Shown in pieces: positions 24,711 through 39,615 of a stretch of 64,000 bases of DNA. This DNA comes from Candidatus Nealsonbacteria bacterium. GTDB taxonomy: Bacteria; Patescibacteriota; Minisyncoccia; Minisyncoccales; JANBVM01. Position 1 is the stretch's first letter; each line of letters opens with the position of its first letter. Location of the stretch: positions 386,000 through 449,999 of the forward strand of contig CP061210.1 of NCBI GenBank assembly GCA_026016225.1. The letters are read 5' to 3'. The notes beneath the pieces are model-generated. The model was not told the DNA's origin. It made no database searches and was given only the letters and a program-made list of their open reading frames with translations. The position numbers and the translations under genes are program-made.

Positions 24711-24902
24711 CTAATATCTTTGAGGTCCTCGTTGAGTTCTTCGCTTGGCATGACATTCTCTGCAATAAATTGGTCTGTCTGCTGACGGCTCAAATGGAAG
24801 TTCGGTTATCTCTTTTCCGCAATCAGCACATTTCCAATTTCCCTGGTACATCTTTCGGTCAGAAAAATCTCTTTTTGGGCGATCTCTAAAGTCGTTGAAC
24901 AT
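24711..24902 (-). CDS. small zinc-ribbon protein with basic tail, putative nucleic-acid binding
   Basis: CADCGKEITELPFEPSADRPIYCRECH (CxxC-x17-CxxC). Confidence 0.6.
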   Translation of the reverse strand: MFNDFRDRPKRDFSDRKMYQGNWKCADCGKEITELPFEPSADRPIYCRECHAKRRTQRGPQRY

Positions 24903-25119
24903 ACTAAATTAAGATCGTAAATCCAAGCTTTAAGTTTCAGAACTTAAAGCTTATTTGAACGCTTAGTTAGAATTAAATTAAAAGCGACCTTTTGATTACT
25001 AAGCCGTTCTATTTTCCGATCTTTATTTTTAGAAAAGATTGTTTAAATGTTTCGACTTATAATCTGAGTAGAATAATAGCATGTTATTCTAAGCAAGTCA
25101 ACTTATATTGTACTTTGGC

Positions 25120-25162
25120 AAATAATGTGTGTAGATGTCAGACTTAATATTGTGCAACATTT
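25120..25162. repeat. left copy of a 43-bp inverted repeat (partner 37354..37396); its inner end is a TTGTGCAACAT site
   Basis: Hand alignment gives 39 of 43 identical to the reverse complement of 37354-37396. Weaker similarity continues outward to about 25101. Confidence 0.8.
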
Positions 25163-25232
25163 ATTATTTAATTTTAGATATCCGAGAGTTTTTCTCAGAT
25201 TTTTTACATTATATTTATAACAGCGGACAATC

Positions 25233-25251
25233 TATGTTGTGCGACATTAAA
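25233..25251 (+). repeat. island site copy (TATGTTGTGCGACATTAAA)
   Basis: Core TTGTGCGACAT, about 40 bp upstream of the lexA promoter. Confidence 0.7.
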
Positions 25252-25291
25252 ACTAGTATTGCCAGAAAATGAGTTATCCACAGATATATTC

Positions 25292-25320
25292 TTGACACCC
25301 GACCAAATGGTCGGTATTAT
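25292..25320 (+). promoter_or_regulatory. lexA promoter with a 16-bp perfect palindrome filling the spacer
   Basis: TTGACA 25292-25297, 17-nt spacer containing CCGACCAAATGGTCGG (25299-25314), TATTAT 25315-25320, then AAGAAGGA and the ATG at 25331. Confidence 0.5.
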
Positions 25321-25330
25321 AAGAAGGAAT

Positions 25331-25945
25331 ATGAAGAAAAAAAATATTACTAAAAGACAAAAAGAGGTATTACAGATAATTTACGATAATATAAAAGATT
25401 TCGGTTTTCCTCCTTCCTTTAGTGAATTAAAAGAAGGGTTGGGTATATCCTCGAATCAATCACTTTTAGATTTTTTTACAGTATTGGAAAGAAAAGACCT
25501 GATTATTAGAGAAGAAGGTTCAGCCCGGGGTATTAGAATTCTCAAAAAGGGATACAAAGCAATCAGTGCCAGGCCCTTGGCTCCGATAGTTGGTAGTACT
25601 TCAGCAGGTGAGTTTATTGAAGCTATAGAAGAAATTGATGCTTGGATACCTTTATCAAAAGATACAGAAATCATTTCTGATAATGTAATCGTCACAAGAA
25701 TTATTGGAAACTCAATGATAGGGGCCGGTATCGAAGATGGGGATTTGGTTTTATTCAAAAAAACAAATGAGTTTTCCTCTGGAGATATTGTTTTGGCCCA
25801 GACTCCTGATGGCACTACTGTTAAACGATTTATTTCTCAAGACAAACCCCCGTATCAGTTTTTAAAGCCGGAAAATCCTAAATATAAAATTATTCTTTTT
25901 ACTGATGAAATGGAAATGATTGGTAAAATGATTAAAAAATTATAA
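25331..25945 (+). CDS. lexA: LexA-type repressor (wHTH + S24 autopeptidase)
   Basis: LexA DNA-binding N-domain, Ala-Gly cleavage site (STSAGEF), catalytic Ser in GNSM and Lys in VKRF. Start moved from the TTG at 25259 to the ATG at 25331 because of the internal promoter. Confidence 0.8.
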   Translation: MKKKNITKRQKEVLQIIYDNIKDFGFPPSFSELKEGLGISSNQSLLDFFTVLERKDLIIREEGSARGIRILKKGYKAISARPLAPIVGSTSAGEFIEAIEEIDAWIPLSKDTEIISDNVIVTRIIGNSMIGAGIEDGDLVLFKKTNEFSSGDIVLAQTPDGTTVKRFISQDKPPYQFLKPENPKYKIILFTDEMEMIGKMIKKL

Positions 25946-25947
25946 AT

Positions 25948-26727
25948 ATGTCTAAGAAAATCTGGGAAAATTTTGAAGAGACAAAGTTATATAAAAATTG
26001 GGCCAGTTTTCTTCAGGCATTTTTTAGTCCTTATCCTTTAATATTTTTAGTTTTATCAATTCTTTCTATTTGGCTTTCTTTTAAATATAAAGAAAACATG
26101 CCATTTTCGGTATTAGTCACCATAATTGCAGCGTTTTTTTCTGGATTGGCTGGTGGTTTTATTAAGGATGAATTCAGTAGCTTAATGTTGGAAAAAAAAG
26201 GAAGATCTGCAGTAAGGAATTTAGAATCTATAAATCAGCAAATTTATAAAATACGGGGCTGGATTAAAGAATTTGTAAAAGGTAAAAGAGCTAAAGAAAG
26301 CTTAAAAGAAACAGATCGTCATCTAAGTATGGCAGAATTTAACATTCAAGCTGGCATAGAGGACTGGATTGATGTAGTGCCCGAACTGGGTATTTTTTCT
26401 AAAATTATAAGAAATCAAGAAACCGCTTTGTTTATAGGAAAGGAAAAGATAGCCTCAATAGAAAGAGAATTATTAAAAGTTAGAGATAATAGAGAGGTAA
26501 AAAAGAAACTAGCAGAGCAAAAAAAGCAAATCAGAAATTTAGAAAACACCATCTATAAGTTTAAAAAAGAACGTAGTTCAATAATAAGTAGTTTTTCATT
26601 AGTCGCCCCCTATCATTTTAAAAATTTAAATGTAAATGACTTAGAGGAGCAGATAAAATATTTATTAGAACAACTTGCCGAATTACAAAATGAACTGAGG
26701 AGACTGGAAGACAAAGAGAAAAAATAA
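25948..26727 (+). CDS. hypothetical 2-TM protein with long C-terminal coiled coil, co-transcribed with lexA
   Basis: 2-nt gap after lexA, two hydrophobic helices near the N-terminus, heptad-rich C-terminus. No motif recognised. Confidence 0.55.
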   Translation: MSKKIWENFEETKLYKNWASFLQAFFSPYPLIFLVLSILSIWLSFKYKENMPFSVLVTIIAAFFSGLAGGFIKDEFSSLMLEKKGRSAVRNLESINQQIYKIRGWIKEFVKGKRAKESLKETDRHLSMAEFNIQAGIEDWIDVVPELGIFSKIIRNQETALFIGKEKIASIERELLKVRDNREVKKKLAEQKKQIRNLENTIYKFKKERSSIISSFSLVAPYHFKNLNVNDLEEQIKYLLEQLAELQNELRRLEDKEKK

Positions 26728-26745
26728 ATATTGTGCGGTATCTAA
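26727..26745 (+). repeat. weak island site copy (AAATATTGTGCGGTATCTA)
   Basis: Shares ATATTGTGCG and overlaps the stop codon of the preceding gene. Confidence 0.45.
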
Positions 26746-26842
26746 GGATAAACATATAGATAGGTATTTATTCTACTTTGAATTTTTGAAGAAAATAGAG
26801 TTATTATAAAAGTAGAATCAATTAGTTTTCGTTTTATGTAAT

Positions 26843-28027
26843 ATGGGAGTAAAACAAGCAATTAGACAAAAAAAGCAACTTGGGCAATTTTTGACCAGGA
26901 ACTCAGACTACATTTTGAGAGATTTAGATAAGTACATTAAAGGTAAAGAAGTTGTTGACCCTTTTGCTGGAGAAGGAGATTTAATGGATTGGGCGAAACG
27001 TAATAAAGCAAAAAAAGTAATAGGTTATGATGTTGATGATAAATATGTAAACGGAAAAGATATTTTTTCAAACGATAGTCTTTTAAATCCGTTAGAATAT
27101 AAGTTTGTTTTAACTAATCCTCCGTATTTAAATATTAACAAAGCGAACAAGAAAACAAAGGATAAATATTTTAGTAAGTCCAAATTTGAAGATTTATATC
27201 AGATTTCCCTTTTTTCTATCCTTAATAGTGAAGAAGGAATTGTTATCGTTCCGATAAATTTTTTATCGGCTAGAAATTCAAAAAAAATTAAAAATATATT
27301 TTTTGATAAGTTTGAGATAGTAGAAATGAATTATTTTAAACATCAGGTTTTTCCCGATACGACTAATAATGTAATAGCTTTTTATTATAAAAAGAAAAAA
27401 AATCCCTTAAGTGATAGATTTTCTATTAAAACTCATATTTACCCAGGGAATAAAATATTTGACATTGAATTAAAAAGGAATTCTTTTTGGAACATACACG
27501 GAGATTTTTTGGACATTATTAAAAAGCAAAAAAATAATTTAGGAATTTCTAGATTAGTCGAGAGAGATGTTTGCAGAAAAAGAGGTCAAGTAGAAATACC
27601 GGCTGCATACAACCACATAGAAAGCATTAAGAGAGTAAAAGTTTCTGAAGACCTTTATAATGCAATAAAATCAAATATAATTTTATTAAAAGCAATTGAT
27701 AGCGGAACAGATAGTGGCAAGATTTCTCTTGAAGATATAAGAAAGTACGGCGTTAAATGCTTAGTAAGTAAAGAATCATCACGGCATATGATTTATCTCA
27801 TTTTTAAAGAGAAAATTTCTATTACAGAACAAAAAAGAATTATAAATATTTTTAATCAAGAACTGAATAGAATGAGAGACAAATATTTATCACTTTTTCT
27901 GACTAATTATCGAGACAATGATCGAAAAAGAATATCTTTCGATTTTGTTTACAAATTTATAAATTATATATATTTTAATAAAGTTAATCCTGAAAATAAT
28001 CAAAAATTGTTATTTCAGACAAAATGA
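26843..28027 (+). CDS. N6-adenine DNA methyltransferase (gamma-class, type II)
   Basis: Motif I VVDPFAGEGDL followed by motif IV LTNPPYL. Confidence 0.8.
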   Translation: MGVKQAIRQKKQLGQFLTRNSDYILRDLDKYIKGKEVVDPFAGEGDLMDWAKRNKAKKVIGYDVDDKYVNGKDIFSNDSLLNPLEYKFVLTNPPYLNINKANKKTKDKYFSKSKFEDLYQISLFSILNSEEGIVIVPINFLSARNSKKIKNIFFDKFEIVEMNYFKHQVFPDTTNNVIAFYYKKKKNPLSDRFSIKTHIYPGNKIFDIELKRNSFWNIHGDFLDIIKKQKNNLGISRLVERDVCRKRGQVEIPAAYNHIESIKRVKVSEDLYNAIKSNIILLKAIDSGTDSGKISLEDIRKYGVKCLVSKESSRHMIYLIFKEKISITEQKRIINIFNQELNRMRDKYLSLFLTNYRDNDRKRISFDFVYKFINYIYFNKVNPENNQKLLFQTK

Positions 28028-28800
28028 ATAAATGGGTTAAAAAAAGCATAAATTTAGCTAATTCTCGGGGATATCTCGATAGACTTTTTGAGGTCTATCC
28101 TATTGAAATGGGAGCAATTAGAGGCTTACCTAAAGGAACAAAAGCAAAGGTTAAGAATGTGCTTAAGACTAAAAATAAATTACATTTAATAGAAACTCTT
28201 TTAAAATTATCTAAATTTCCAATAGACGATCCCTATATTGCTTCTTTGAGAAGACACCCCCACTTATTAAAGAAAAACCCTAAAACAATCAAAAGAATTG
28301 GCAAAAGATTATTGTCGATGGGTTTGGGTACTATATTAAAGTTAGTCGCTAAACCAAAATCACCATCAAGGCAGCTTGGTCATAGTTTTAAAAATTGGTT
28401 GTTAACAAAAAAATATCCATTTCTAAAAGAGAATGAATTTAAAGAAACCAATAAAGTAGCATTTTTAGAGGGAAGTGATAAAAAATTAAAAGAGTTCGTC
28501 ATTAATGAGTTAAAAATTAGAAGTTTAAAAAGAAGACCAGACTTTATATTGAAAACAAAGAATAAATTTATCCTTGGAGAAGCTAAATTTTTAACTGATT
28601 ATGGTGGAACACAAAATAACCAGTTTGATGGAGCTTTAACAATGACAAAAATCAAAAGAGATAAAATTATAGGCATTGCTGTATTAGATGGTATTGCGTG
28701 GTTTAAAAGTAATTCTTATATGTATAAAACGCTAAACAAGTTGAATAGAATAGCAATAAGTGCGTTATTGTTGGAAGAATTTATTAAAAAGGGACCATGA
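28024..28800 (+). CDS. putative type II restriction endonuclease (PD-(D/E)xK)
   Basis: RRPDFILKTKNKFILGEAKF fits PD...ExK. 4-nt ATGA overlap with the methyltransferase. Confidence 0.6.
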   Translation: MNKWVKKSINLANSRGYLDRLFEVYPIEMGAIRGLPKGTKAKVKNVLKTKNKLHLIETLLKLSKFPIDDPYIASLRRHPHLLKKNPKTIKRIGKRLLSMGLGTILKLVAKPKSPSRQLGHSFKNWLLTKKYPFLKENEFKETNKVAFLEGSDKKLKEFVINELKIRSLKRRPDFILKTKNKFILGEAKFLTDYGGTQNNQFDGALTMTKIKRDKIIGIAVLDGIAWFKSNSYMYKTLNKLNRIAISALLLEEFIKKGP

Positions 28801-28869
28801 GAATATTTATTTTGACTAAAGCAAAAAACCCCTCGTTGGGTATTTTTTTAACGCTTGACAAACATCATT

Positions 28870-29193
28870 ATGATGCAGCATATGAATGAAAATAATATAA
28901 CATCCGGCTATAATGCAGTAAAAAGATTAGCGAGAGAACATTCAGGCTGGCTTCCAATAGTTGAAGCTTGTTTAGAAGAGGCGAAAATTACAAGGGGTGA
29001 ATTTGCTGGAGCTTGGGTATTGAAGCAAGCCAAGAAAAAGGGAATAAATTGGTTTCCAAATTTGAGGTTACTTGTTGGTTATGGGATTTTAAAGCATGAA
29101 GATACTACGCGAGGTGGTAGAAGGGCATATTATATAATTCCCGATCCAGAAGGAGTAGCAAGAGCATTACAAGAAATAAGAAAAAAGATTTAA
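28870..29193 (+). CDS. hypothetical winged-helix-like protein
   Basis: C-terminal LRLLVGYGILKHEDTTRGGRRAYYII looks like a wHTH wing. Start is ambiguous (TTG 28855 or ATG 28870). Confidence 0.4.
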   Translation: MMQHMNENNITSGYNAVKRLAREHSGWLPIVEACLEEAKITRGEFAGAWVLKQAKKKGINWFPNLRLLVGYGILKHEDTTRGGRRAYYIIPDPEGVARALQEIRKKI

Positions 29194-29311
29194 TCTTTTA
29201 AAAGTTGAAAGATTATTAATTCAGTTGTAGTGAAATTGCCGAGACATTCGTGAAACTTACCAAAGAACAAAGTTTTAGTTTTTGGGAGTAAAAAGTTAAA
29301 ACAAGTTTTTT

Positions 29312-29788
29312 ATGACCAAGGAAGATTTTGAGAAAATTAAAGAATTAGAAGATAAAGCTCGCAAAATAGAGAGCGAGGCTAAAAGATTAAAAGGCAGTGG
29401 AGAATATGATTTGAGTGTAAGGCGCTCGCAAGAAGCTTTTGAACTTTATTTAAAATTTATTTTTACAGTTTTAGACAAAGAAGTACGTGAAATTTGGGGT
29501 CATGAATTAAGCAGTTTAATTGATAAAGAAACGGAGGCTATCAAGAAAATTTTAAAAGAATATCTCAATTTTTCGGAAAGCTATATTGATGAAATAATGG
29601 CCCGTATCAAATTAGGAAGCCTCACTTTAAACTTATGGCGAAATTTAGCTTTTTACGGTGATGAAAAACTTAAAAAGTATAAGTTTTTTAAACAGAAAGA
29701 GGCCGAGCTTGCGTTAGAATATGTCTCTGAATTATCTACATTGAGTGCATGGATAAAAAATTATTTCAATAATAAATTTTATTCATGA
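29312..29788 (+). CDS. HEPN-domain protein
   Basis: All-helical, Rx4H motif in VREIWGHEL, later RNLAFYGD, as in PF05168-type HEPN proteins. No adjacent minimal nucleotidyltransferase. Confidence 0.5.
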   Translation: MTKEDFEKIKELEDKARKIESEAKRLKGSGEYDLSVRRSQEAFELYLKFIFTVLDKEVREIWGHELSSLIDKETEAIKKILKEYLNFSESYIDEIMARIKLGSLTLNLWRNLAFYGDEKLKKYKFFKQKEAELALEYVSELSTLSAWIKNYFNNKFYS

Positions 29789-29854
29789 TCACCTGTTTCA
29801 TTATCCAAAAATCGCAACTTGATTGCGTGCATCGGCTGAATTTTACTTAAATAT

Positions 29855-30241
29855 ATGACTACAAAATTTTGTACAGGCTGTAATAAAGAAAAGGAGATTA
29901 TTAAAACTGTCAAAGAAAAAAATACAACCACTCATTTTTTGTCTTGTGGCCATAAATTTGTTGAAGTTGTTTTGCAAGATTCTGTGAATGTTAAATCATC
30001 TATTCAAATGAGAATGAAGAGAGGAGAAAAAAGCTGGAATTATATTTATTATACCTTCAGTGTTTTATTAGCAGTTTTTTCTTTCATAATTGGTATTGGT
30101 AATATTTGGTGGGTTTATAAAGTCTTTATCTTTATAATAGGAGCATTCTTTTTATATTGGTTATGTTTTTGCAGCGCTTGGTTTCAAAACAAAATTATTG
30201 GTTTTAAGATAAAATTAGAAAATACATGGAGAAAATTATAA
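29855..30241 (+). CDS. zinc-ribbon protein with C-terminal 2-3 TM helices
   Basis: CTGC...SCGH ribbon, then a hydrophobic segment YIYYTFSVLLAVFSFIIGIGNIWWVYKVFIFIIGAFFLYWLCF. Confidence 0.5.
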   Translation: MTTKFCTGCNKEKEIIKTVKEKNTTTHFLSCGHKFVEVVLQDSVNVKSSIQMRMKRGEKSWNYIYYTFSVLLAVFSFIIGIGNIWWVYKVFIFIIGAFFLYWLCFCSAWFQNKIIGFKIKLENTWRKL

Positions 30242-30371
30242 AATTTAACTTAGCTCACAAAAATTGCTAATTTAGTCTACCAATCTCACGAAGCCTGCAA
30301 AAAAGCAAAGGAATTATTGGATGAAGCTAAACAAAAGGTCGATTGAGTATATTAAATAATTAAAAAATAAA

Positions 30372-30524
30372 ATGCCATTTACAAAAGCCAACCTTTATAA
30401 AGATGCAGTAGCTTTGGCAAAAGAGCTTTTTAGGAATGGGGAGGCCTCGAAGTTTGGATCTCTCGAAAGCATTATCAAAGAAATTTTCGAGACATTAAAA
30501 GAAATAAACGAAGAAATAGAGTAA
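30372..30524 (+). CDS. hypothetical 50-aa helical protein (below the ORF-track cutoff)
   Basis: Hand-translated as MPFTKANLYKDAVALAKELFRNGEASKFGSLESIIKEIFETLKEINEEIE. It ends directly at a cassette-end element. Confidence 0.3.
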   Translation: MPFTKANLYKDAVALAKELFRNGEASKFGSLESIIKEIFETLKEINEEIE

Positions 30525-30590
30525 TTAATACTGTGCAACATTTAATTTTTAATAGAAACCGTTAGGGTAGACAACTAACGTTTTTTTATT
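30523..30590 (+). repeat. cassette-end element copy 1: site TTAATACTGTGCAACATTTAAT + hairpin CGTTAG/CTAACG + T7
   Basis: About 80 percent identical by hand alignment to 35177-35245. The hairpin at 30560-30580 plus the T-run acts as a terminator. Confidence 0.75.
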
Positions 30591-30644
30591 TTTATTGACC
30601 TTTTTTAGAAATAGAGCTATTTTGAAGGTGGATAAATTTAATCT

Positions 30645-31555
30645 ATGAAAGAAAAAATTAAGAAAATTTTAAAATTGGGGTTTATTTCTACTTTGATGTG
30701 TTTAGGCTTAGTCTTTCTTATCGCTATTATTTCGCCAGACTCTTCTCTGCTTGAAGAAAAACTTCCTGCTTCAATTCACGAAGGCATAGAGAAGGAACAA
30801 CCTCCCCTCAATCACAAAAGGAATCTCAAAAGGAAAAATCTGAATCTCAACCCCAACCCGAACCTGAGCTCGAACCAGAACCTTGTGCTAATATAACTTG
30901 TCTTTCTTGTAAGTATTGTGATTCTGGAATTTGCGTTAATTATTGTAAGGGCGATGACACTAGTTGTGGTTGCAATTCTTGTATTAACTGCAATAGCTCG
31001 GATGGTTGGGTAACTAGAGGTTCTTCGTATTCTTGCTGTGAGGGAAACAAGAAATGTGTCTGTCAAAACCAAGAATACCGTGATTACTACTGTTTGGGAA
31101 ATTCTTGCACCTATTTAATAACAAATAACAGAACTAACAAAACTAACTGTTATGAGTGTGCTTCTTATCAGTATTGTTCAGGAGGAACCTGTTATACCGA
31201 ATCTCAGGAAGAGATAATATGTTCTTACGATGCCTATAACTGTTCTAATTTCTCTACTCACGCAGAAGCTCAGAATATATTCGAATATTGTGGCGGAGTT
31301 AGTAATGATATCCACTATCTTGACGGAGATAACGATGGAATAGCCTGTGAAAGTCTAATTTCCAGCCCCACATCTCCTCCCGAATCTTCTTCTCCTAACT
31401 CATCCATAATTTGTTCCTATAATGCATATAATTGCTCACAGTTTTCTACTCACGAAGAAGCTCAATCAGTTTTTGAATACTGTGGAGGAGTAAGTAATGA
31501 CATTCATCGGCTTGATGGAGATAATGATGGAATAGCTTGTGAAAGTTTACCTTAA
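30645..31555 (+). pseudogene. secreted Cys-rich protein with two Excalibur Ca-binding domains, interrupted by a frameshift at a C4 run
   Basis: The signal/TM N-terminus is in frame 0. The P/Q/E linker, Cys-rich region and both Excalibur repeats (DGDNDGIACESL) are in frame 2. One extra C at 30804-30807 would fuse the two frames. Confidence 0.6.
31214..31549 (+). repeat. tandem duplication of a 144-bp Excalibur-domain unit (31214-31357 and 31406-31549)
   Basis: The encoded 48-aa units IICSY(D/N)AYNCS...LDGDNDGIACESL are near-identical. Confidence 0.85.
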
Positions 31556-31674
31556 AATGGAAAGTTTCTAATTTTTAATTAAAAAACCCATCGTTGAGCA
31601 ATTAATGTCGGACGAGGCATAAAAAGAGAAACAAGACTGAAGAATATTGAAAATCATAAAATTAAATAACTATT

Positions 31675-31860
31675 ATGGCTACTCTTTTTAAAGTTGATAC
31701 TTGGGAATTTATAAAAGAACTCGTTAAGAGCACGTGGTTTGCCTTGTGGTATTTTTTTATTAAGCCATTCTGGTGGCTTTTTTTGATTATAATTTTGGTG
31801 GGAGTTCTAAAAAGATGGCTTCCAGACATTATTAATAAACTAAAAAGTAAAGTAAAATAA
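31675..31860 (+). CDS. hypothetical small membrane protein
   Basis: 61 aa, aromatic-rich TM segment. A fully overlapping antisense ORF makes the call uncertain. Confidence 0.35.
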   Translation: MATLFKVDTWEFIKELVKSTWFALWYFFIKPFWWLFLIIILVGVLKRWLPDIINKLKSKVK

Positions 31861-31867
31861 ACCAATG

Positions 31868-31889
31868 TCGAACAAGGTATCTTGTCCGA
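31868..31889. repeat. 22-bp imperfect palindromic island site TCGAACAA-GGTATC-TTGTCCGA
   Basis: Arms match 7 of 8 as inverted repeats. Same half-site as the TTGTGCGA family. Confidence 0.7.
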
Positions 31890-32134
31890 ATATAGAAAAA
31901 GTCGAAGAATTAATTTAGTAGAAGATATTGGTGGAGTTCAGATTTTAAACGTGAAGGTTTGATTAAAGTCGGATTACGTTCTAGATTAAGAAAATAACGT
32001 CTAAAGATAAATAGAAAAAGCTCATCGTTGGACGATTTTTTATTCCTTGAGTTTTTCAAAAAATCAGTCTATTCTGAAAGTAGAAAGATATTTTTTAGAA
32101 AAAATAGTAAAAAAAATAATGAGTTTCTTAAAAC

Positions 32135-33775
32135 ATGGCTATTATCGCTCCAAAACCCAAATCTCTTAAGGAATTAATTCGAGATAAGTACTATCGGGTA
32201 CCACTATATCAAAGATCCTATGATTGGGAAATCGATAAGGTATCTGTACTTTGGGATGATGTATATAAAAACGCTCCCGGTTATTTTTTAGGTATAGTTC
32301 TTTTTAAACCTGGGTCAGAATCCGACCTACACCCTGTTAAATTTGAGATTGTGGATGGTCAACAACGATTGGCTACTCTTCTATTGCTTCTACGTGCTGC
32401 TGTTGAGACACTTGAACAAGCGGGGTCTAAAGATATAGCACATGAATTTCAGAGGGATTACATTAACCAAAAGTCAGCTGGGGAGAAAGAATCACGAATG
32501 ACATTAATTTTAAATAAACGCGATAAAGATAAATTTGAGCATCTTTTACTTGGCGAGCAATTTCGAATTAAAAAGAAATTGTCTTCGTGGAAAAATTTAG
32601 ACAAAGCAATCCAATTTTTTCGCGAAAAATTCGGCAATCTTATTAAGGAGCAAGGTAAAGATGGCATAATTAATTTTATAAACAGAAGAATTTTGAAACT
32701 TTCATTTACCGAAATACTTTTGGGTACCGACAGCGATGTTTATCAATTTTTTGAGACATTGAATGATAGAGGAATGGATCTATCTATTGCTGATTTAGTA
32801 AAAAATCGTGTTTGTGCAGAGGCGTCCAAGCAGAAAGCTGATGTAGAAGAAAGTGCTCTGACGATAGATAAAATTTCAGAGGAGCTTGGTTCGGGTAAAT
32901 TAAAAGGGTTTCTCCTTCATTATTGTTGGGCTAATGACGAAGGGAAAGAGCCTACACCTAGGAAGAAACTCATGGTTTGGTACGGTAATCGAGTTAGTAA
33001 GGCCGATAAAATTAACAACTTTTTAGACCATTTAGAAACATATGCTCTACAGTACTATATCAATTTTGTGAAACCAAATAAGTGTACCGATTCGAAAAAA
33101 AGAACGGCATTTACTTATTTAGATGCTTTGGGAGCAACACGTTGTTATCCTTTACTTTTGACGGGGGAAGAATCTCTAAAGAAAAAAGATTTTCTTAGCT
33201 TGTGCAATGCGATTGAGATCTTAACATTTCGCCATAGCACCATTCTGAAAAGGGACGCGAAAGTCCTTGAGGGTGTTTTCTTTAACATGATAAGAAATCT
33301 TAGAAAACGAAAACCCATTAAGGAAATCTTAGAAATTTTCAAAAGACAAAATGCCATGAAAGCTGACGAACAATTTAAGTTGGCTTTCGCTGAATTTATA
33401 CCAGCAAATCATAAAATAGCCAGGTATACCCTTTCAAAAATTGAAGAAGTTATGATTGGTAAAAAGCAAGCACCTCTTTCTTGGGACAACCTTACGCTCG
33501 AACATATATTGGCAGAAAAACTCGATTGGGAAGGACGAGAGGAATATCTAGAACGGTTGGGTAATTTAACTTTATTGTCACCTGGGATGAACATTGATGC
33601 TGCCAATGAACCTTTTAAAGAGAAGCGTAAACGGGTTTATAAAGTGGAAAAGCGCATTAAAATCACCAAAGACTTGACTAGTTTTCCTGATTTTACGAAA
33701 GATACAGTTATTTCACGCCAAAAAGATTTCGCTAAGCTTGCAATTAAAATTTGGAATTCTAAGAGAATATCATAA
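32135..33775 (+). CDS. DUF262/DUF1524 fusion nuclease (GmrSD-family, type IV restriction-like)
   Basis: N-terminal YRVPLYQRSYDWE and DGQQRL (DUF262). C-terminal LEHILAEK...GNLTLLSPGMN His-Me finger (DUF1524). Confidence 0.8.
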   Translation: MAIIAPKPKSLKELIRDKYYRVPLYQRSYDWEIDKVSVLWDDVYKNAPGYFLGIVLFKPGSESDLHPVKFEIVDGQQRLATLLLLLRAAVETLEQAGSKDIAHEFQRDYINQKSAGEKESRMTLILNKRDKDKFEHLLLGEQFRIKKKLSSWKNLDKAIQFFREKFGNLIKEQGKDGIINFINRRILKLSFTEILLGTDSDVYQFFETLNDRGMDLSIADLVKNRVCAEASKQKADVEESALTIDKISEELGSGKLKGFLLHYCWANDEGKEPTPRKKLMVWYGNRVSKADKINNFLDHLETYALQYYINFVKPNKCTDSKKRTAFTYLDALGATRCYPLLLTGEESLKKKDFLSLCNAIEILTFRHSTILKRDAKVLEGVFFNMIRNLRKRKPIKEILEIFKRQNAMKADEQFKLAFAEFIPANHKIARYTLSKIEEVMIGKKQAPLSWDNLTLEHILAEKLDWEGREEYLERLGNLTLLSPGMNIDAANEPFKEKRKRVYKVEKRIKITKDLTSFPDFTKDTVISRQKDFAKLAIKIWNSKRIS

Positions 33776-33817
33776 AAAACCGTTTAGGCCGTCATTAGAC
33801 TACAATTCTTATTAACG

Positions 33818-33839
33818 TCGCACAATACACCTTGTGAGA
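33818..33839. repeat. 22-bp imperfect palindromic island site TCGCACAA-TACACC-TTGTGAGA
   Basis: Read directly. Preceded by ATTAACG as in the 37351 copy. Confidence 0.65.
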
Positions 33840-33891
33840 CCATCTTCTCATAAGGTATAAAAACCGTCATCAGTTAATAAAAAATGATTTT

Positions 33892-34114
33892 ATGCTGATT
33901 AAAGTTAAGGTTTTCCCGGCCTCAAAAGAAGAAAAAATAATAAAAAAGAAGGAGGATAGCTTTGAGATTAGGGTTAAAGAAAAACCCATCAGGGGAGAGG
34001 CAAATAGAGCAGTAATTGATGTTTTATCCAATTTTTTTTAATGTTCCAAAAGATAAAATTAAATTAATAAAAGGATTTAAACAAAGAAATAAAATCTTTG
34101 AAATAGCTATATAA
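33892..34114 (+). pseudogene. DUF167 (YggU-like) gene split by a +1 frameshift in a T8 run
   Basis: MLIKVKVFPASKEEKII...RGEANRAVIDVLSNFF stops at 34041. The next frame continues NVPKDKIKLIKGFKQRNKIFEIAI. T8 lies at 34032-34039. Confidence 0.65.
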
Positions 34115-34157
34115 TGCTATGTTAAGAATCGTTGGAGTGGGCGACTAACGGTTTTTT
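34105..34157 (+). repeat. degenerate third copy of the cassette-end element (hairpin CGTTGG/CTAACG + T6)
   Basis: The hairpin at 34130-34150 matches the stems at 30560 and 35215. The site part is barely recognisable. Confidence 0.45.
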
Positions 34158-34168
34158 ATTTACATTGG

Positions 34169-34237
34169 CCTTTTTCAACTTCACAGTACTCAAGGAAATC
34201 GGGGATATGTTTTAAAATTGGCTTGTCAGATTTTTTT
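34169..34237 (-). pseudogene. relic of the first ~23 codons of a second tyrosine recombinase gene
   Basis: 56 of 68 nt identical to 36129-36196. It encodes KKSDKPILKHIPDFLEYCEVEKG versus MKKSKTPIIKHIPDFLDYCEVEKG. The start codon is lost. Confidence 0.75.
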
Positions 34238-34300
34238 CCTTTGTTGGTTTAAACAGATATTCTTGACAAAAGTTTTTTATGTTATAGTAAAAAAAGAGGT

Positions 34301-34801
34301 ATGAATAGAAAGAAATATAAGGTAATCTTGCATTACATCATTAAAGAATGCGGGAGTAAGCCTAATTTTGGAAAAACAGTCTTGTGGAAGCTTTTGTATT
34401 TTGCAGATTTTGACTTTTACGAGCTTTATGAGAAGCATCTTATTGGTGAGAAATATAAGAACATAAAGTATGGTCCAGCTCCTGTGCGTTTTAATAAAAT
34501 AATAGGAGAACTAAAATCGGAGAAAAAGGTTAAAGAAGTAAAAGAAAAAATTGGACGCTATGATAAAAAAAGATATATTGCATTAGAGGAACCCAATTTA
34601 GAAGTCCTTTCAGGTAATGAAAAAGAGTTGCTTGACAACATGATAAAGAGATATGGGTCTTACAATGCTTCTCAAATAGAGGAAGTCTCGCATAAGGATA
34701 TTCCGGTAAGAGCCACTGGAAGGGGAGAGCTAATTGAGTATGAACTTGTTTTCTATCGTGAGCCTCCGTTCAGTATTCGTTCTTATGAAAAAAAGGAGTA
34801 A
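34301..34801 (+). CDS. Panacea/DUF4065 (SocA-like) antitoxin-domain protein
   Basis: GKTVLWKLLYFADFDFYELYEKHLIGEKYKNIKYGPAP matches the DUF4065 signature. Confidence 0.7.
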   Translation: MNRKKYKVILHYIIKECGSKPNFGKTVLWKLLYFADFDFYELYEKHLIGEKYKNIKYGPAPVRFNKIIGELKSEKKVKEVKEKIGRYDKKRYIALEEPNLEVLSGNEKELLDNMIKRYGSYNASQIEEVSHKDIPVRATGRGELIEYELVFYREPPFSIRSYEKKE

Positions 34802-34806
34802 GAGAT

Positions 34807-35172
34807 ATGAAGATAGAGCAAGTTGATGAATTCAATAAGGATGTTAAAAAATTAGAAAAGAAATTCCGCACGATACGAGCAGATTTAGAGAACTTCAAAA
34901 AAATTTTAATTATCAACCCAGAGAAATTAGTAGGAGCTATCCCTGTACATTATCAAGAAGTTAAAATAAATCCAAAAGTAAAGGTATATAAAGCAAAAAA
35001 ATTTAGATGTAGGTATCTAAAAGGTAGAGGTTGTTTCAGCGGCATAAGAGTTATATACGGTTTCTGGTGGGCTGTTCAAAAAATTACTTTATTAGAAATT
35101 TATTATAAAAAGAAGAGGAAAAAGGATTGTGATTTAGAAAGGCTAAAATATTACTTTGGAGTACAAACATAA
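34807..35172 (+). CDS. putative cognate toxin (RelE/ParE-like features)
   Basis: 5-nt gap after the antitoxin gene, 121 aa, FNKDVKKLEKKF start and GIRVIYGF core typical of RelE/ParE-fold toxins. Confidence 0.45.
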   Translation: MKIEQVDEFNKDVKKLEKKFRTIRADLENFKKILIINPEKLVGAIPVHYQEVKINPKVKVYKAKKFRCRYLKGRGCFSGIRVIYGFWWAVQKITLLEIYYKKKRKKDCDLERLKYYFGVQT

Positions 35173-35176
35173 ACTC

Positions 35177-35245
35177 AATTAATATTGTGCGACATTTAAT
35201 AAGTGAGAGAAAACCATTAGGGTAGGCAGCTAACGGTTTTTTTTA
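35177..35245 (+). repeat. cassette-end element copy 2: site TTAATATTGTGCGACATTTAAT + hairpin + T8
   Basis: Stem AAACCATTAG/CTAACGGTTT at 35211-35239. Serves as a bidirectional terminator between the toxin gene and the recombinase gene. Confidence 0.75.
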
Positions 35246-36199
35246 TTCCTTCAGATTTTTACCACTGTGGAATTTACGATGAATGTCTCGAAGCCGCTTG
35301 CTTGTTACGTGAGTATATATTTGGGTTGTGACAATGTTTTTGTGGCCCAAAAATTCTTGGATGGTTCTTAAATCAACGCCTTGGGTTAGGAGATCGGTTG
35401 CCATACTGTGGCGGAGAGTGTGGGGAGTAGTAAATATAGGGATACCGGCTAAGATTGCATATTTTTTAACGATTCTTTCTATAGAACGAGACGTTAAGCG
35501 GGCGTCTGCACCCCTTTTAGATCTATAGTTGATAAATAGGGCTTTTTCTTTGTCTTTTCTTGTTTCCAAATATTTTTTAAGCCAAGACAAAGCTCTTTCT
35601 GAAAAATAGACTGTTCGGGGATGACCTCCTTTACCAATAACACTGAGCTCCAACCCTTTTTTGTTTTCTATATTGGCAAATTGTTCTTTATTGAGGGCCA
35701 CTAATTCAGCTATTCTTAAGCCAGTTGAGAAAAGTGCTTCCAAAATAGCCTTATTTCTTAAACCAATAGGGCTTTTGGTGCCAGGAGCTAGTAAAAGTCT
35801 CTCAACTTGCTCTAAACTGAGGAATTTGACTGTTTTTCCCTTTTTAGCGTCCTTTGGGAGCTTTATTTTATCAGCAGGCAATGAAACTATATCTTTGGCT
35901 GTGAAATAGCTTAGGAGGGCTCTCAGGGCGATTAGATAGTAGTTCTGGGTTATTTTCTTCAGGGGTTTACCCTTATAATGCTTAAATCTTGATAAATAGA
36001 GCCGGTAGTCCCAAATATCGTCTGTAGTCAGTTGGTGGGGCCTTAAATCCTCTTTTTTTGCCCTTTTTAGCCAGGAGACGAACTTCTGGAGGTAGCGCTG
36101 ATAATTTTCCTGTGTTTTATTAGATAATCCTTTTTCTACTTCACAATAATCCAGAAAGTCGGGGATATGTTTTATAATTGGTGTCTTTGATTTTTTCAT
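35243..36199 (-). CDS. tyrosine site-specific recombinase, XerC/XerD-like
   Basis: SAM-like N-domain. Catalytic residues in GLRIAEL, HTLRHS, LGH and IYTHV. No IntI-type insertion. Confidence 0.9.
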   Translation of the reverse strand: MKKSKTPIIKHIPDFLDYCEVEKGLSNKTQENYQRYLQKFVSWLKRAKKEDLRPHQLTTDDIWDYRLYLSRFKHYKGKPLKKITQNYYLIALRALLSYFTAKDIVSLPADKIKLPKDAKKGKTVKFLSLEQVERLLLAPGTKSPIGLRNKAILEALFSTGLRIAELVALNKEQFANIENKKGLELSVIGKGGHPRTVYFSERALSWLKKYLETRKDKEKALFINYRSKRGADARLTSRSIERIVKKYAILAGIPIFTTPHTLRHSMATDLLTQGVDLRTIQEFLGHKNIVTTQIYTHVTSKRLRDIHRKFHSGKNLKE

Positions 36200-36296
36200 A
36201 AATTATTTTTTATATTTTTACCTATTCTCTAAGAGTAAAAATTGAGTATTTGGGGGAGAGGTTCTAATGGAACCCTTTTGTCATATATATTAAATG

Positions 36297-36318
36297 TCGC
36301 TTAACCTACATTGTGCGA
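36297..36318. repeat. 22-bp imperfect palindromic island site TCGCTTAA-CCTACA-TTGTGCGA
   Basis: Flanked by AATG / CATT (AATGTCGC...GCGACATT). About 100 bp upstream of the recombinase start. Confidence 0.65.
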
Positions 36319-36387
36319 CATTATATCTATATATATTGTACCGTGTCAAAACACGGTGTCAAGTACTCCCCTATAAGGTATTTACAT

Positions 36388-36417
36388 GAAAAAACTATCT
36401 CTTACTAGATAGCTTTT
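36388..36417 (-). terminator. rho-independent terminator after the RT-partner gene
   Basis: On the minus strand, AAAAGCTATCT-agtaag-AGATAGTTTTTT. Confidence 0.55.
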
Positions 36418-36424
36418 ATTTTTA

Positions 36425-37291
36425 CTATTTTTCTTCTTGTTTATTAAAAAGCTCTGCTTGTAACTTTTGTACCTCAAAAACATCAAGAAGTGTTACCTTT
36501 AAATTCTCATCAATATGAGCCTTACACTTCACTTTTACGGGTCCCTTATAGAGAAAATATGGATATAATTCTTCTGGATTTTCATTAGCAAAACGATAAG
36601 TAACTCTTGTTCCGTCATTTAAAATAAAGAATCCTTTATTTGTTGATTTGGTTAAAGAGTTAAAGGCTCCAACTAACCAGAGCTCTTTTGTCTTTGTTAT
36701 TGAAACAGTCTCTGTGTCAAAATATATTTTTTCATCAAAGGTTATTTTTTCTTTCAACTCCTTTTTTTTATGGATTACCTTAATTTCTGCCGAATCTACC
36801 CTACCCTTCTCCAGTGGTTTAGCAATTTTTGCAAGATCGGGGTCTAAAATACGTTCTTTAAATAACTGGAACACATCCACAGGGATTTCTATTGTTACAT
36901 TTTTACTGTTTTTAACCGATATTAGAGTATTATCAGCCCCTGTTATTTTTTCAGTATATGGTTGGTTTCCAGTATGTTTCTTTAATTGAATAACACCTAG
37001 AATAATAGTAACTACAGTAAAAGCACCTCCCCCCAGCATTGCGCTTATAGCTTGTATTTGGTCTGAGTGTGCGCCAATCCATTCCCATGCCTCTAATAAT
37101 ATATCAAATGAGCCCCCTTCTACACCAACAATTCTTAATTTATGTTCTGAAGTAAATCCTTTATTACTAACGACCTTTCCATACGCGCTCGCAAATCCCT
37201 GAAGAACCGGTATTATGTCTTCAATTGACATCGTTCCATCGTCAACATCTTTTCCGGTATATTTTAAAGTTACCCTAAGTGACTCTTTCAT
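36425..37291 (-). CDS. hypothetical single-TM protein downstream of the reverse transcriptase
   Basis: 288 aa with a central hydrophobic helix AISAMLGGGAFTVVTIILGVIQL and a beta-rich C-terminal half. No motif recognised. Confidence 0.6.
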   Translation of the reverse strand: MKESLRVTLKYTGKDVDDGTMSIEDIIPVLQGFASAYGKVVSNKGFTSEHKLRIVGVEGGSFDILLEAWEWIGAHSDQIQAISAMLGGGAFTVVTIILGVIQLKKHTGNQPYTEKITGADNTLISVKNSKNVTIEIPVDVFQLFKERILDPDLAKIAKPLEKGRVDSAEIKVIHKKKELKEKITFDEKIYFDTETVSITKTKELWLVGAFNSLTKSTNKGFFILNDGTRVTYRFANENPEELYPYFLYKGPVKVKCKAHIDENLKVTLLDVFEVQKLQAELFNKQEEK

Positions 37292-37353
37292 ATTTTTATT
37301 ATAGCAAATTATTTTGATTAGTTCCCTATCCTAATAGCTCTACATAGGCTATT

Positions 37354-37396
37354 AAACGTCGCACAATATTAAGTCTGATATCTGCACACATTATTT
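37354..37396. repeat. right copy of the 43-bp inverted repeat (partner 25120..25162)
   Basis: 39 of 43 identical in inverted orientation. Contains the site ATTAAACGTCGCACAATATTAAG at 37351-37373. Confidence 0.8.
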
Positions 37397-37457
37397 ACCT
37401 AATAATGCCTAATATGCCTTGTACGATACTTATACAACTTAAATACCAAATTCGCTT

Positions 37458-39071
37458 TTATCTTACCCTGTAGAAATAAATAATTTCGAATTTTTCTTCT
37501 CCAAGAGTTTCAATTTTAATACGATCATAGGGACGGAAATACATTGCTTTTTGTAAATTCTTTATATAATTCACAAAAGACTTTGGCCATATCCTTTTTC
37601 GAACACTTCTATAAAAATCATTTCTTGATGCTAAGCCTAATTCTTGAACCGCCAAAGCGATACTCTTTCTAATTTCATTTTTTTCAGCTGAATTAAATTC
37701 ATCTATTAAGAGTTCTCTATCCGTATTTCTACCATATTGCCCTACTAATAAACAATATAATGATCTAACGGCCCAATTCCGATTTTTATCTAAAAATCTT
37801 CTGGATAGCTTTTTTAACAAATTTCTATTAACAGTTATCTTCATTTTTAGTAAAGCTCTCAAAACATGAAGCTCTTGCCACTCATAAATATTGTCTTTAG
37901 AGAATAAAAACTTTATCAGAAACTCTTTTATTCTTTGACTTCGTGGAAACAAAGTAAGAAAGCTACAAAAATCTTTGGAGTGATGCGGCTTTTTGGTAAA
38001 ATTATCAAGTATCAAATCAATAGCAATTTTTTCATTAAAATCAATCCCGCTAGATTTTAATATTGATAAACGAAAAATACCAAAATTTAAATGACGTCTT
38101 TGAAAAGGATTTTTATCAGAAAATCCTCCTTTAAAAATATCCTTTAGGAGAATTGATTTAATTGCCTGAATCTTAGAAAACTCCTGAGACTCGAGAGCTT
38201 CTTGAATTGAATCTAAAATCGCCTTCTTGGGATCGAATAACTCTTTCTCAATCTCAAGGTTTCGAAGTATCCTTGTTTTTTTAGCATTTATATTGAGTTT
38301 ATATTTTCTTAGCGATTTCACTATTTTAATTAATGCTTTTTTAGCTTTAATTTCTGATTTACAAAAAACTCTAATATCATCCATGTAACGGAAATAACTA
38401 GGCTCTGATTCCATTTCTCTATCAAAATTATCTAAATATATATCGCCTAAAAACGAAGAGGCTGTAGGTCCCTGCGGCAATCCAAAATTTTCTACTCGTC
38501 TAGAGCTCCAAGGTAATAAAATTTTATTATGGAGAAAATCTATTACTTCTGTAGTATTTTTATCTCTTTTGTCTATATAGTTTATCAGTTTTTTTCGTAG
38601 CTCGCGAAGGTCTATATTTTCGAAATAGCCTGAGATATCTGTTATTACTACATATAAATTACCAGATTTATACAAATCACGACTTTTATCATCAAATTTC
38701 TTCCAAGCATTAACTCGTCTTCTCCTTGGATCTCTAAAATTTAACATACTATAGCTTCGTCTGCTTGTTTTCCTAATAATTTTGGGGACTAAATAATTGA
38801 TAACGGCTTGATAGGCAATCCAGTCAGTAATTTCCGGCCTTGCCATAGGTCTTATCGTAAAATTGCTTTTGGGCACATCTATCATTAATAAAGGTTCAAC
38901 TGAATATTTCCCATTTTTTATTTTTTCTTTAATTTCTTTAAAGATTAACTTTTTATCTAAAGTAACATATGAAAATCTTAAAGGATCAGGAGTAGGGTTA
39001 TTACCCCTTCTATCGTCTCTTAATATAGATTTGAAAGCATTTTCTAAATCTAATTTCATAATTTGACACAC
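37458..39071 (-). CDS. reverse transcriptase, UG/Abi-like, with helical-repeat C-terminal domain
   Basis: RT motifs in order: TIRPMARP, VVITDISGYFENID, GLPQGPTASSFLGDIYL, FRYMDDIRVF, LNINAKKT. About 250 aa of helical tail. GTG at 39071 or ATG at 39059. Confidence 0.85.
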   Translation of the reverse strand: MCQIMKLDLENAFKSILRDDRRGNNPTPDPLRFSYVTLDKKLIFKEIKEKIKNGKYSVEPLLMIDVPKSNFTIRPMARPEITDWIAYQAVINYLVPKIIRKTSRRSYSMLNFRDPRRRRVNAWKKFDDKSRDLYKSGNLYVVITDISGYFENIDLRELRKKLINYIDKRDKNTTEVIDFLHNKILLPWSSRRVENFGLPQGPTASSFLGDIYLDNFDREMESEPSYFRYMDDIRVFCKSEIKAKKALIKIVKSLRKYKLNINAKKTRILRNLEIEKELFDPKKAILDSIQEALESQEFSKIQAIKSILLKDIFKGGFSDKNPFQRRHLNFGIFRLSILKSSGIDFNEKIAIDLILDNFTKKPHHSKDFCSFLTLFPRSQRIKEFLIKFLFSKDNIYEWQELHVLRALLKMKITVNRNLLKKLSRRFLDKNRNWAVRSLYCLLVGQYGRNTDRELLIDEFNSAEKNEIRKSIALAVQELGLASRNDFYRSVRKRIWPKSFVNYIKNLQKAMYFRPYDRIKIETLGEEKFEIIYFYRVR

Positions 39072-39087
39072 AAGATACCTTGTTTGG
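39066..39087. repeat. weak island site ACACACAA-GATACC-TTGTTTGG overlapping the RT start
   Basis: ACAAGATACCTTGTT is shared with the reverse complement of the 31868 site, and the 6-bp centre is identical. Confidence 0.5.
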
Positions 39088-39153
39088 CATTATTCCTATT
39101 TAACCTTACCTCGCTTTTTTCATTTTTTCAATATAGATTATACGGCAGTAACC

Positions 39154-39180
39154 AAAAAATCGCCCCTTCGACGATTTTTT
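39154..39180. terminator. A/T-flanked hairpin terminator at the right island border
   Basis: AAAAAATCG-ccccttcga-CGATTTTTT, downstream of the minus-strand gene 39202..39615. Confidence 0.5.
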
Positions 39181-39201
39181 AATTATTTTTTTAATATTTT
39201 A

Positions 39202-39615
39202 TTACTCCCACAAGTCTTTGAGTCTTTCCCAGAGAGATTTGGTAACCTCTGGTAATTCTTCTTTCATTTCTTGTTTTTCTTTTTCAAATTCTTGTTCAAT
39301 TATTGGTTTTCTTTTTTCATATTCTCCTTTAAATCGTGGTATTACTTCATTCTGGAAAAAATCTTTAATCTTTGACCAAATATTAACTTCAAACCAATCA
39401 TACATTTTCTGCCAGACAGGCAAAATATCCTCTTTCCAAATTCTTTCCAAGATGTCTGGTAAATTTCTTTTACCGGTTTCAAGTGCTTTTTCCCCCATTT
39501 CTTTTGCTTCTTCCAGATTTTCTGGAACTTGAATGGTTTGTTGAGCAAAAGATAGATTTGCTAAAGCAAAAGCAAAAATTATAAGGATTATTAAAATTTT
39601 TGTTGTTTTTATCAT
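39202..39615 (-). CDS. small secreted protein, unknown function
   Basis: Signal peptide ILIILIIFAFALANLSFAQQ. 4-nt overlap with the gltX stop. Confidence 0.5.
   Translation of the reverse strand: MIKTTKILIILIIFAFALANLSFAQQTIQVPENLEEAKEMGEKALETGKRNLPDILERIWKEDILPVWQKMYDWFEVNIWSKIKDFFQNEVIPRFKGEYEKRKPIIEQEFEKEKQEMKEELPEVTKSLWERLKDLWE

Follow-up and report, generated by a model that had tools for sequence, protein, structure and literature searches.

A defence-rich accessory region on both sides of a probable dif site and the xer gene at a replication terminus of Candidatus Nealsonbacteria

Integrative mobile elements exploiting Xer (IMEX), such as CTX-phi, TLC and the gonococcal genetic island, have no integrase of their own; they accumulate at dif, leave dif-like sites at their ends and accrete in tandem at the terminus. 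XerS/difSL of the streptococci and XerH/difH of the Campylobacterota are single-recombinase systems in which the recombinase gene lies next to dif. The dif (pdif) modules of Acinetobacter are discrete modules, including toxin-antitoxin (TA) pairs, with Xer-type sites of 11-6-11 geometry that are often inversely oriented, and one module is found in different contexts without a dedicated integrase (PMC6449649, PMC12907356). In these respects they are resembled by the region described here, positions 24903-39201 of a 64,000-nt window (the whole stretch of DNA analysed, from contig CP061210.1 of a Candidatus Nealsonbacteria bacterium), where accessory genes lie on either side of the tyrosine recombinase gene xer and of a probable chromosomal dif. 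The preferred reading, given a probability of about 0.6, is that accessory genes of the terminus zone accreted on both sides of dif and xer, partly by Xer-type cassette exchange.

Synteny was compared in two sets of 80 loci each, one centred on gltX homologs in species-representative genomes and the other on recombinase homologs in metagenomes. The nearest GltX in this sample is 63-66% identical, so that the comparisons stand at genus level or above. Comparison loci and contigs (relatives, contexts of homologs and viral contigs) carry L-numbers. Gene families were assigned with Pfam, PADLOC and NCBIfam, and PHROGs was added for the open reading frames (ORFs) without a match.

The xer gene, the probable dif and the variable zone

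The conserved order of this locus is formed by the dcw genes, murG, gltX, p137 and xer, followed by a convergent block of uppS, an FAD oxidoreductase gene, pyrG, rplI and an S41 protease gene. The xer gene (35243-36199, minus strand) encodes an Xer-family tyrosine recombinase with PF00589 (E 1.6e-40) and an N-terminal SAM-like domain. Its NCBIfam scores are 225 bits for XerD and 222 bits for XerC, below the equivalog cut-offs of 330 and 335, and 113 bits for XerS. It is 58-85% identical and syntenic in about 90 loci, a conservation exceeding that of GltX. The core gene p137 (39202-39615, minus strand), coding for a secreted protein of 137 amino acids (aa), forms the right boundary of the region and has homologs between gltX and xer in most relatives. 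Because of its identity, its synteny with gltX and its XerC/XerD-like score, the recombinase is judged to be a core housekeeping Xer and not an island integrase; the original prediction had counted it among the genes of the island, a view that its conservation in about 90 loci overturns.

A single mobile island (an integrative and conjugative element, a prophage remnant or another integrative element), inserted between housekeeping genes by its own tyrosine integrase, would fit the presence of the recombinase and of the relic of a second copy within the region, as well as the 53-nt inverted repeat that brackets 25114-37402. This is nevertheless a highly improbable explanation. The recombinase is XerC/XerD-like and adjoins gltX in about 90 relatives, island-free ones included (the xer-uppS gap is 16-204 bp in six loci and reaches more than 8 kb in others), so it is not specific to an element. 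Genes for tRNAs or conjugation and phage structural modules are absent from the region, and the histories of its modules differ, GmrSD travelling alone.

Nearly all genes lie on the plus strand up to 35172 and on the minus strand from 35243. The GC skew changes from +0.186 on the left side to -0.098 on the right side, and cumulative G-C over the 64-kb window peaks at 36,300, where the dif-like site lies. This convergent pattern of strands and skew marks the replication terminus, at least within 64 kb. The candidate dif (36293-36322, minus strand) reads AATGTCGCACAA TGTAGG TTAAGCGACATT on the xer strand, with inverted arms in a 12-6-12 arrangement, and resembles canonical dif in its XerC arm and centre (GGTGCGCATAA TGTATA). 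The 24-mer GTCGnACAATGTAGGTwAAGCGAC is found no more than 700 bp upstream of xer and on the same strand (median 75 bp) in 58 of the 82 loci whose flank was long enough. Architecture, location at the switch in skew and likeness to the canonical XerC arm and centre together make 36293-36322 the probable chromosomal dif, the site of dimer resolution.

The xer promoter, TTGACA-18-TATAAT (36320-36349, minus strand), matches the consensus at 12 of 12 positions, and its -10 hexamer adjoins the left arm of dif and overlaps it at the outer end. Since dif directly follows a perfect xer promoter, autoregulation is suggested, in which Xer bound at dif would repress its own gene. In many relatives the six bases before GTCG resemble a -10 hexamer (GATAAT, GAGAAT).

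One xer gene was identified in the 64-kb window, besides a relic of a second copy (34120-34236, minus strand) in which the first 27 codons or so are joined to the last codons and to a copy of the terminator. The relic shares 56% amino acid identity with xer over 41 residues (tblastn, E 3e-8) and 79% nucleotide identity over 86 nt (blastn), and belongs to repeat families D2 and D4. In three relatives a second, divergent xer, 61-67% identical to that of the window, lies in tandem with the resident one (L125, 8133-9113; L142, 7962-8915; L136, 3-473). In L125 and L118 (at about 214) a dif-like site differs in its arms, the variant reading GGTTCGCATAA-N6-TTAAGAGAACC. The comparison suggests that Xer/site pairs of different specificity exist.

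The accessory genes of the window form two blocks flanking dif and xer, at about 25114-35178 and 36323-39201. No homolog of the reverse transcriptase (RT), p288, GmrSD, TA pair, restriction-modification (RM) pair or HEPN genes was identified at this locus in about 90 relatives, even at E 1e-3. As gene order and content are not conserved in the relatives, the region is classed, by sequence comparison, as an accessory, variable and defence-rich island that was serially accreted. The original prediction had described an accreted defence island whose order should not be conserved: its accessory and defence-rich character and its variable order stand, but it straddles dif and xer and is not one mobile unit. 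The compositional deviation that had been proposed as a check did not appear, the tetranucleotide z of the region being -0.6 to +1.0, with no foreign signature, in a window of about 31% GC. Rfam returned no known RNA family between 17000 and 42000. The decayed second xer, the tandem xer copies and a 5.3-kb segment of L124, which lies between direct half-site repeats with similar flanks, are hints of DNA capture at the locus.

Xer-type sites and the GmrSD cassette

The 13-mer motif ATTGTGCGACATT, searched with at most two mismatches, occurs nine times in the window against 1.0 expected, and eight of these copies fall within 25149-37367 (12.2 kb). The shared sites and terminator copies seen by the original prediction are therefore real, as are the recombinase relic and the two frameshifted genes. 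Beside dif, seven Xer-type copies were identified: three two-armed sites with a 6-bp centre (S2, S4 and S5), two extra half-sites (S1 and S3) and two core half-sites (S6 and S8). Sites S1-S8 lie at junctions of gene modules, several of them being half-sites, and the left GmrSD boundary is about 120 nt from S4.

Each two-armed site has ACAA-N6-TTGT and a second arm that can be recognised, and thereby the 11-6-11 geometry found in recombinase core sites. S2 (25220-25248, minus strand) is a full pseudo-dif, AATGTCGCACAA CATAGA TTGTCCGCTGT, with the ACAA-N6-TTGT inner palindrome. S4 (31864-31892, plus strand) reads AATGTCGAACAA GGTATC TTGTCCGAATA, and its centre is similar to GGTATA, the centre of those sites at which the GmrSD cassette terminates in L170 and L171. 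S5 (33814-33842, plus strand) reads AACGTCGCACAA TACACC TTGTGAGACCA.

The core half-sites are S6, TTAAATGTCGCACAATATTAA (35179-35199), which together with the xer terminator hairpin spans 35179-35242 on the minus strand, and S8, the left core half-site AAACGTCGCACAATATTAA (37350-37402, plus strand), inverted with respect to S6. S8 lies in a 53-nt repeat common to S1. The latter, half-site AAATGTTGCACAATATTAA (25114-25166, minus strand), is in the inverted copy of this repeat and is 87% complementary to 37350-37402. S3 (30523-30605, minus strand) combines a half-site with copied pieces of xer, namely its terminator and its final codons; it is 82% identical to 35176-35247 and belongs to repeat families D2 and D5.

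In 62 of 84 loci of the relatives the xer stop codon is followed on the xer strand, at a median distance of 52 bp, by the half-site TAAATGTCGCACAATATTAA; the control on the opposite strand yields 2 of 84. Conservation collapses right past TATTAA. A mirror-image (inverted) half-site follows the p137 gene in many of them. Over all loci, 77 of 77 exact copies of GTCGCAYAAT to the right of xer are on the plus strand, and 26 of 29 copies to its left are on the minus strand. S6 and S8 are thus core features that bracket the dif-xer unit.

A promoter reading of the motif was considered and rejected: some copies in the relatives have TAnAAT 16-17 nt on, but the copies are antisense to the main genes and those of the window have no good -10 boxes. 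LAGLIDADG homing-endonuclease genes were identified just downstream of xer in six relatives (L013, 7355-8001; L014, 13883-14491; L015, 13518-14072; L019, 11349-11898; L008, 13103-13534; L147, 1690-2241). At least four of these six genes are preceded by TTGTCGCAyAAT, with TAnAAT 16-17 nt after.

The best evidence of movement comes from the GmrSD cassette (31996-33825, plus strand), which comprises a promoter, the gene, a terminator and the left arm of S5. Its nearest homologs, with 84-88% protein identity, are found in three unrelated neighbourhoods: between a transglycosylase and an FtsQ-like gene in L170, after a Dcm methylase and an HhH-GPD gene in L171, and after a HinP1I RM system and a Vsr gene in L169. 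DNA identity over 31996-33825 is 88-91% (89-91% for L170 and L171, 88% for L169), and the core proteins encoded on L170 are only 46-67% identical to those of the window. The homology with L170 and L171 ends on the right at 33825, the exact end of the S5 left arm (...TTATTAAyGTCGyACAA) and thus the border of arm and centre. Past this position the window continues with TACACC TTGTGAGAC, and L170 and L171 with GGTATA and then unrelated DNA. In both contigs GmrSD is flanked by inversely oriented sites, the left one 25-100 nt before the start of homology. By these comparisons the GmrSD cassette is demonstrably mobile and ends in what reads as an Xer-type site.

Under the preferred reading, the core unit would consist of the left half-site, the dif-like site, xer and the right half-site, set between gltX-p137 and the convergent uppS-pyrG block. 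Circular or incoming DNA with a compatible site would be captured at dif or at the flanking sites by Xer-type site-specific recombination, and the modules would afterwards be shuffled or inverted between sites, as for the Acinetobacter dif modules and IMEX. The S6 side (about 25114-35178) would so have come to hold lexA with a transmembrane (TM) gene, the RM pair, HEPN, ORFs of unknown function, the Excalibur gene, GmrSD and the Panacea TA pair; on the dif side (36323-39201) p288 would occupy the slot between left half-site and dif, with the UG21 RT just outside. Movement of the modules by Xer catalysis is inferred. Ordinary duplication or homologous recombination is implied to act at the locus as well, because pieces of the terminator and of the xer ends are duplicated.

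Several observations weigh against this reading. The orientations of the sites in the island are mixed and not all direct, and the half-sites could have another role, such as Xer binding without recombination. GmrSD is the only module with a boundary mapped to a site: homology in different contexts that ends at sites was found for this cassette only, through L170 and L171. On the left the cassette ends without a clean boundary, 25-120 nt from the closest site, and in L169 the homology stops at about 33786, some 40 nt short of S5, with no recognisable site. No such sites were identified beside the TA and RT homologs in other contexts, which are too divergent (63-74%) for boundary tests. Two indels beside xer that distinguish L089 from L090 (96% identical) are not bounded by sites. 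Finally, the hot spot of the relatives holds mainly non-defence genes: the 150 ORFs of their variable zones include seven LAGLIDADG endonucleases, NUDIX, TspO, transporters, umuDC-like pairs, and a few RM genes, Cas4-like nucleases and a dGTPase. As these are mostly ordinary accessory genes, the locus is a general hot spot and the stacking of defence genes is particular to this genome.

The indels between L089 and L090 also suit an explanation without cassette exchange, in which the terminus is a zone of relaxed selection that gains genes by illegitimate or homologous recombination after DNA uptake, and the motif is a binding site with a different role (terminus-organising half-sites of Xer, an operator or a promoter element). 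Most relatives keep both core half-sites in position, as would suit sites with an independent function; XerD-binding sites reportedly unload SMC in Bacillus subtilis. The TAnAAT spacing seen in some relatives is promoter-like, and the duplicated flanks (terminator and xer ends) are not the product of site-specific recombination alone. This explanation is considered fairly unlikely, since the homology of GmrSD with L170 and L171 ends exactly at the border of arm and centre, with inverse sites flanking the cassette there, since S2, S4 and S5 have the full recombinase core geometry, and since the lexA promoter has its own, different palindrome.

Viral contigs also present two-armed sites. The pattern TGTCGCACAA-N6-TTnnGCGACA was identified in 48 IMG/VR contigs (L262-L309), against one for the control pattern. 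Their site centres are mostly TATGTA or TATACA, and that of L274 is TGTAGG, as in the chromosomal dif. The 48 contigs are fragments of tailed phages in which the site usually sits directly in front of the terminase genes, and in many cases close to a contig end; no Xer gene was found in the fetched stretches of these contigs. L088, a small podovirus-like contig, carries at 60-140 the left arm and centre of dif, followed by a full site with centre TATTAA. Scans of the viral contigs with the 17-mer half-site (L088 excepted) and with a loose 15-nt pattern stayed at chance level. The viral sites may be attachment sites that use the host Xer, or an element of the cos/pac region.

A broader proposal extends to Paceibacteria-type Patescibacteria, where gene capture might resemble that of integrons without a dedicated integrase: Xer and (T)GTCGCACAA-N6 sites would move cassettes with defence, TA and spare xer genes between chromosomes and to the terminus, phages would integrate through the same site, and the inverted half-sites that bracket dif-xer would be part of the machinery. 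It is offered as a tentative possibility.

Gene content of the accessory blocks

The gene list of the original prediction is largely borne out by Pfam, PADLOC and NCBIfam, which identified LexA, the RM pair, HEPN, GmrSD, the Panacea TA pair, the recombinase and the RT. Two semi-core genes of the xer-proximal zone, both matched in Pfam, precede the left block: mpg (24072-24644, plus strand), with homologs (66-74%) in the xer-uppS gap of L126 and L127, and a treble-clef zinc-finger gene (24711-24902, minus strand), with homologs (74-84% identity) in the same gap of L104, L107, L123 and L124.

The left block begins with lexA (25259-25945, likely ATG at 25331, plus strand; TIGR00498, 132.7 bits against a cut-off of 111), followed by a TM/coiled-coil gene (25948-26727, plus strand). 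The lexA promoter, TTGACA-17-TATTAT (25292-25320), has its spacer filled by a perfect 16-bp palindrome, CCGACCAAATGGTCGG (25299-25314), which occurs only once in the window and is a candidate for the LexA operator of this lineage. A GAAC-N4-GTTC box was sought at lexA and none was identified. In other Patescibacteria, fusions of about 500 aa comprising a LexA DNA-binding domain, an S24 peptidase and a DNA methyltransferase were found in L170 (4223-5773, minus strand) and L172 (5340-6851, minus strand); these fusion genes adjoin homologs of GmrSD or of the UG21 RT. In the window, some 900 nt separate lexA from the RM methyltransferase, which lies downstream of it and has the same orientation. 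Because of this proximity and of the fusions elsewhere, lexA may be the controller of the RM module rather than a housekeeping SOS repressor.

The position of S1 and S2 upstream of lexA and the palindromic TGT-N3-ACA core of the motif (TGTCGCACAA) raise another explanation, namely that the motif is the LexA (SOS) box of the lineage and the island an SOS-controlled set of genes. It is very improbable: in relatives the motif flanks xer even where lexA is not close by, copies downstream of genes are as frequent as copies upstream, and the 16-bp palindrome in the spacer of the lexA promoter is the better operator candidate.

The RM pair is formed by an NPPY methyltransferase (26843-28027, plus strand), with a weak Eco57I-type match, a weak MTase_II match and only weak family matches, at E 4e-6, and by a Tsp45I-family endonuclease (28024-28800, plus strand; PF06300 E 1e-67, PADLOC REase_II E 3.5e-53). 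The two genes overlap and belong to known families, as expected of a type II RM system, and the pair looks intact. Next come four genes (28855-30524, plus strand): a 112-aa ORF, HEPN (29312-29788, plus strand; Pfam E 1e-7), a 128-aa membrane ORF with a Cys motif and a 50-aa ORF. The 112-aa ORF (labelled winged helix-turn-helix), the 128-aa ORF (labelled zinc-ribbon TM) and the 50-aa ORF had no family match in Pfam, PADLOC, NCBIfam or PHROGs.

A frameshifted gene (30645-31555, plus strand) follows, with a signal/TM segment, a Cys-rich part and two Excalibur domains supported by domain matches; it is split into 30645-30896 and a second frame open over 30761-31555. A gene with an Excalibur domain adjoins the GmrSD cassette both in the window (31094-31555) and in L169 (8608-8853; GC 39%), with the cassette in opposite relative orientation. 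This shared neighbour could reflect an inversion of the cassette or independent insertions beside similar genes.

The GmrSD gene itself (32135-33775, plus strand; PF03235 E 4e-35, PF07510 E 2e-17, PADLOC HEC-06/Orf5 E 3e-86) encodes a full-length single protein with an N-terminal DUF262 and a C-terminal DUF1524 domain, the composition of a GmrSD type IV system. Downstream lies a DUF167 (YggU) pseudogene (33892-34114, plus strand) with its frameshift at a T8 run (34033-34040); once corrected, it scores 69 bits over the full model, and an intact DUF167 gene was identified in the same zone of L124. The block ends with the Panacea (SocA) antitoxin (34301-34801, plus strand; PF13274 E 5e-20) and its partner, a 121-aa toxin (34807-35172, plus strand) with a weak HigB-2 profile match (E 0.05). 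The pairing is kept in three of three other contexts, as expected of a Panacea TA system, and the toxin is probably HigB-2/RelE-like. A single-sequence AlphaFold model of this toxin was unusable, with a predicted local distance difference test score (pLDDT) of 40.

The right block comprises two genes. The first, p288 (36425-37291, minus strand), encodes a 288-aa protein of unknown function from the LAPAL family/PDC-S42-like group (NF053583, 88 bits against a cut-off of 60; PADLOC PDC-S42 E 9e-16; phrog_3243) and lies between the left half-site and dif, a slot that other small genes occupy in relatives. The second is an RT of the UG21 type (Class 1 UG/Abi; 37458-39071, minus strand; PADLOC RT_UG21 E 2e-89 over residues 4-497), whose database copy starts at 39059. 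UG21 is placed in Class 1, in which the RT is fused to helical repeats (Mestre et al., PMC9226505). The assignment follows from the RT domain and from UG21 as best profile, the helical-repeat region being given by the class definition. The RT is stand-alone here, and its homologs are stand-alone in other defence islands and contexts. A two-gene system of RT and p288 was considered and rejected: RT homologs never occur with p288, and S8 separates the genes. In L173 (147-8543) a type I restriction operon has an RT homolog of 67% identity between hsdM and hsdS; a NYN-domain gene and hsdR come after it.

Comparison with known systems

Patescibacteria have tiny genomes with few recognisable mobile elements, and the gain and shuffling of their anti-phage genes are poorly understood. 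The dif-xer unit, its half-sites and a defence cassette that ends at a site point to a route of gene gain, the capture of cassettes at the terminus by Xer-type recombination. The 24-mer next to xer offers a signature for locating the replication terminus in these uncultured genomes. For annotation, the case advises caution, as a tyrosine recombinase in an apparent island can be a housekeeping Xer. A literature search on dif and Xer in the Candidate Phyla Radiation returned nothing relevant, and to our knowledge an arrangement of this kind, sharing features with dif modules, IMEX and defence islands, has not been described in this lineage.

Like defence islands in general, the region clusters unrelated defence genes (RM, GmrSD type IV, UG21 RT, TA and HEPN) with pseudogenes and ORFs of unknown function. 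Unlike them, it has no integrase or transposase of its own, is fixed at dif and xer, and has a composition that is not anomalous.

With the Acinetobacter modules the differences are of setting, cargo and sites. Here the modules are chromosomal and belong to a Patescibacterium; they lie at the terminus, on either side of dif and the xer gene, and carry anti-phage cargo. The arms are (T)GTCGCACAA here and GGTGCGCATAA/TTATGTTAAAT in Acinetobacter. The present system is probably a single-recombinase one with many half-sites, and mobility is documented for one module.

With IMEX the region shares integrase-less accretion next to dif and the dif-like sites at the ends. It differs in that its units are small gene cassettes and not phage genomes, in that the orientations of its sites are mixed, and in that integration of the 48 site-bearing phage contigs is a possibility.

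Finally, as in XerS/difSL and XerH/difH, xer stands beside a candidate dif at the skew switch and is the one xer gene in 64 kb. In contrast to those systems, the protein is closer to XerC/XerD than to XerS, the candidate dif lies within the xer promoter, and inverted half-sites bracket the unit.

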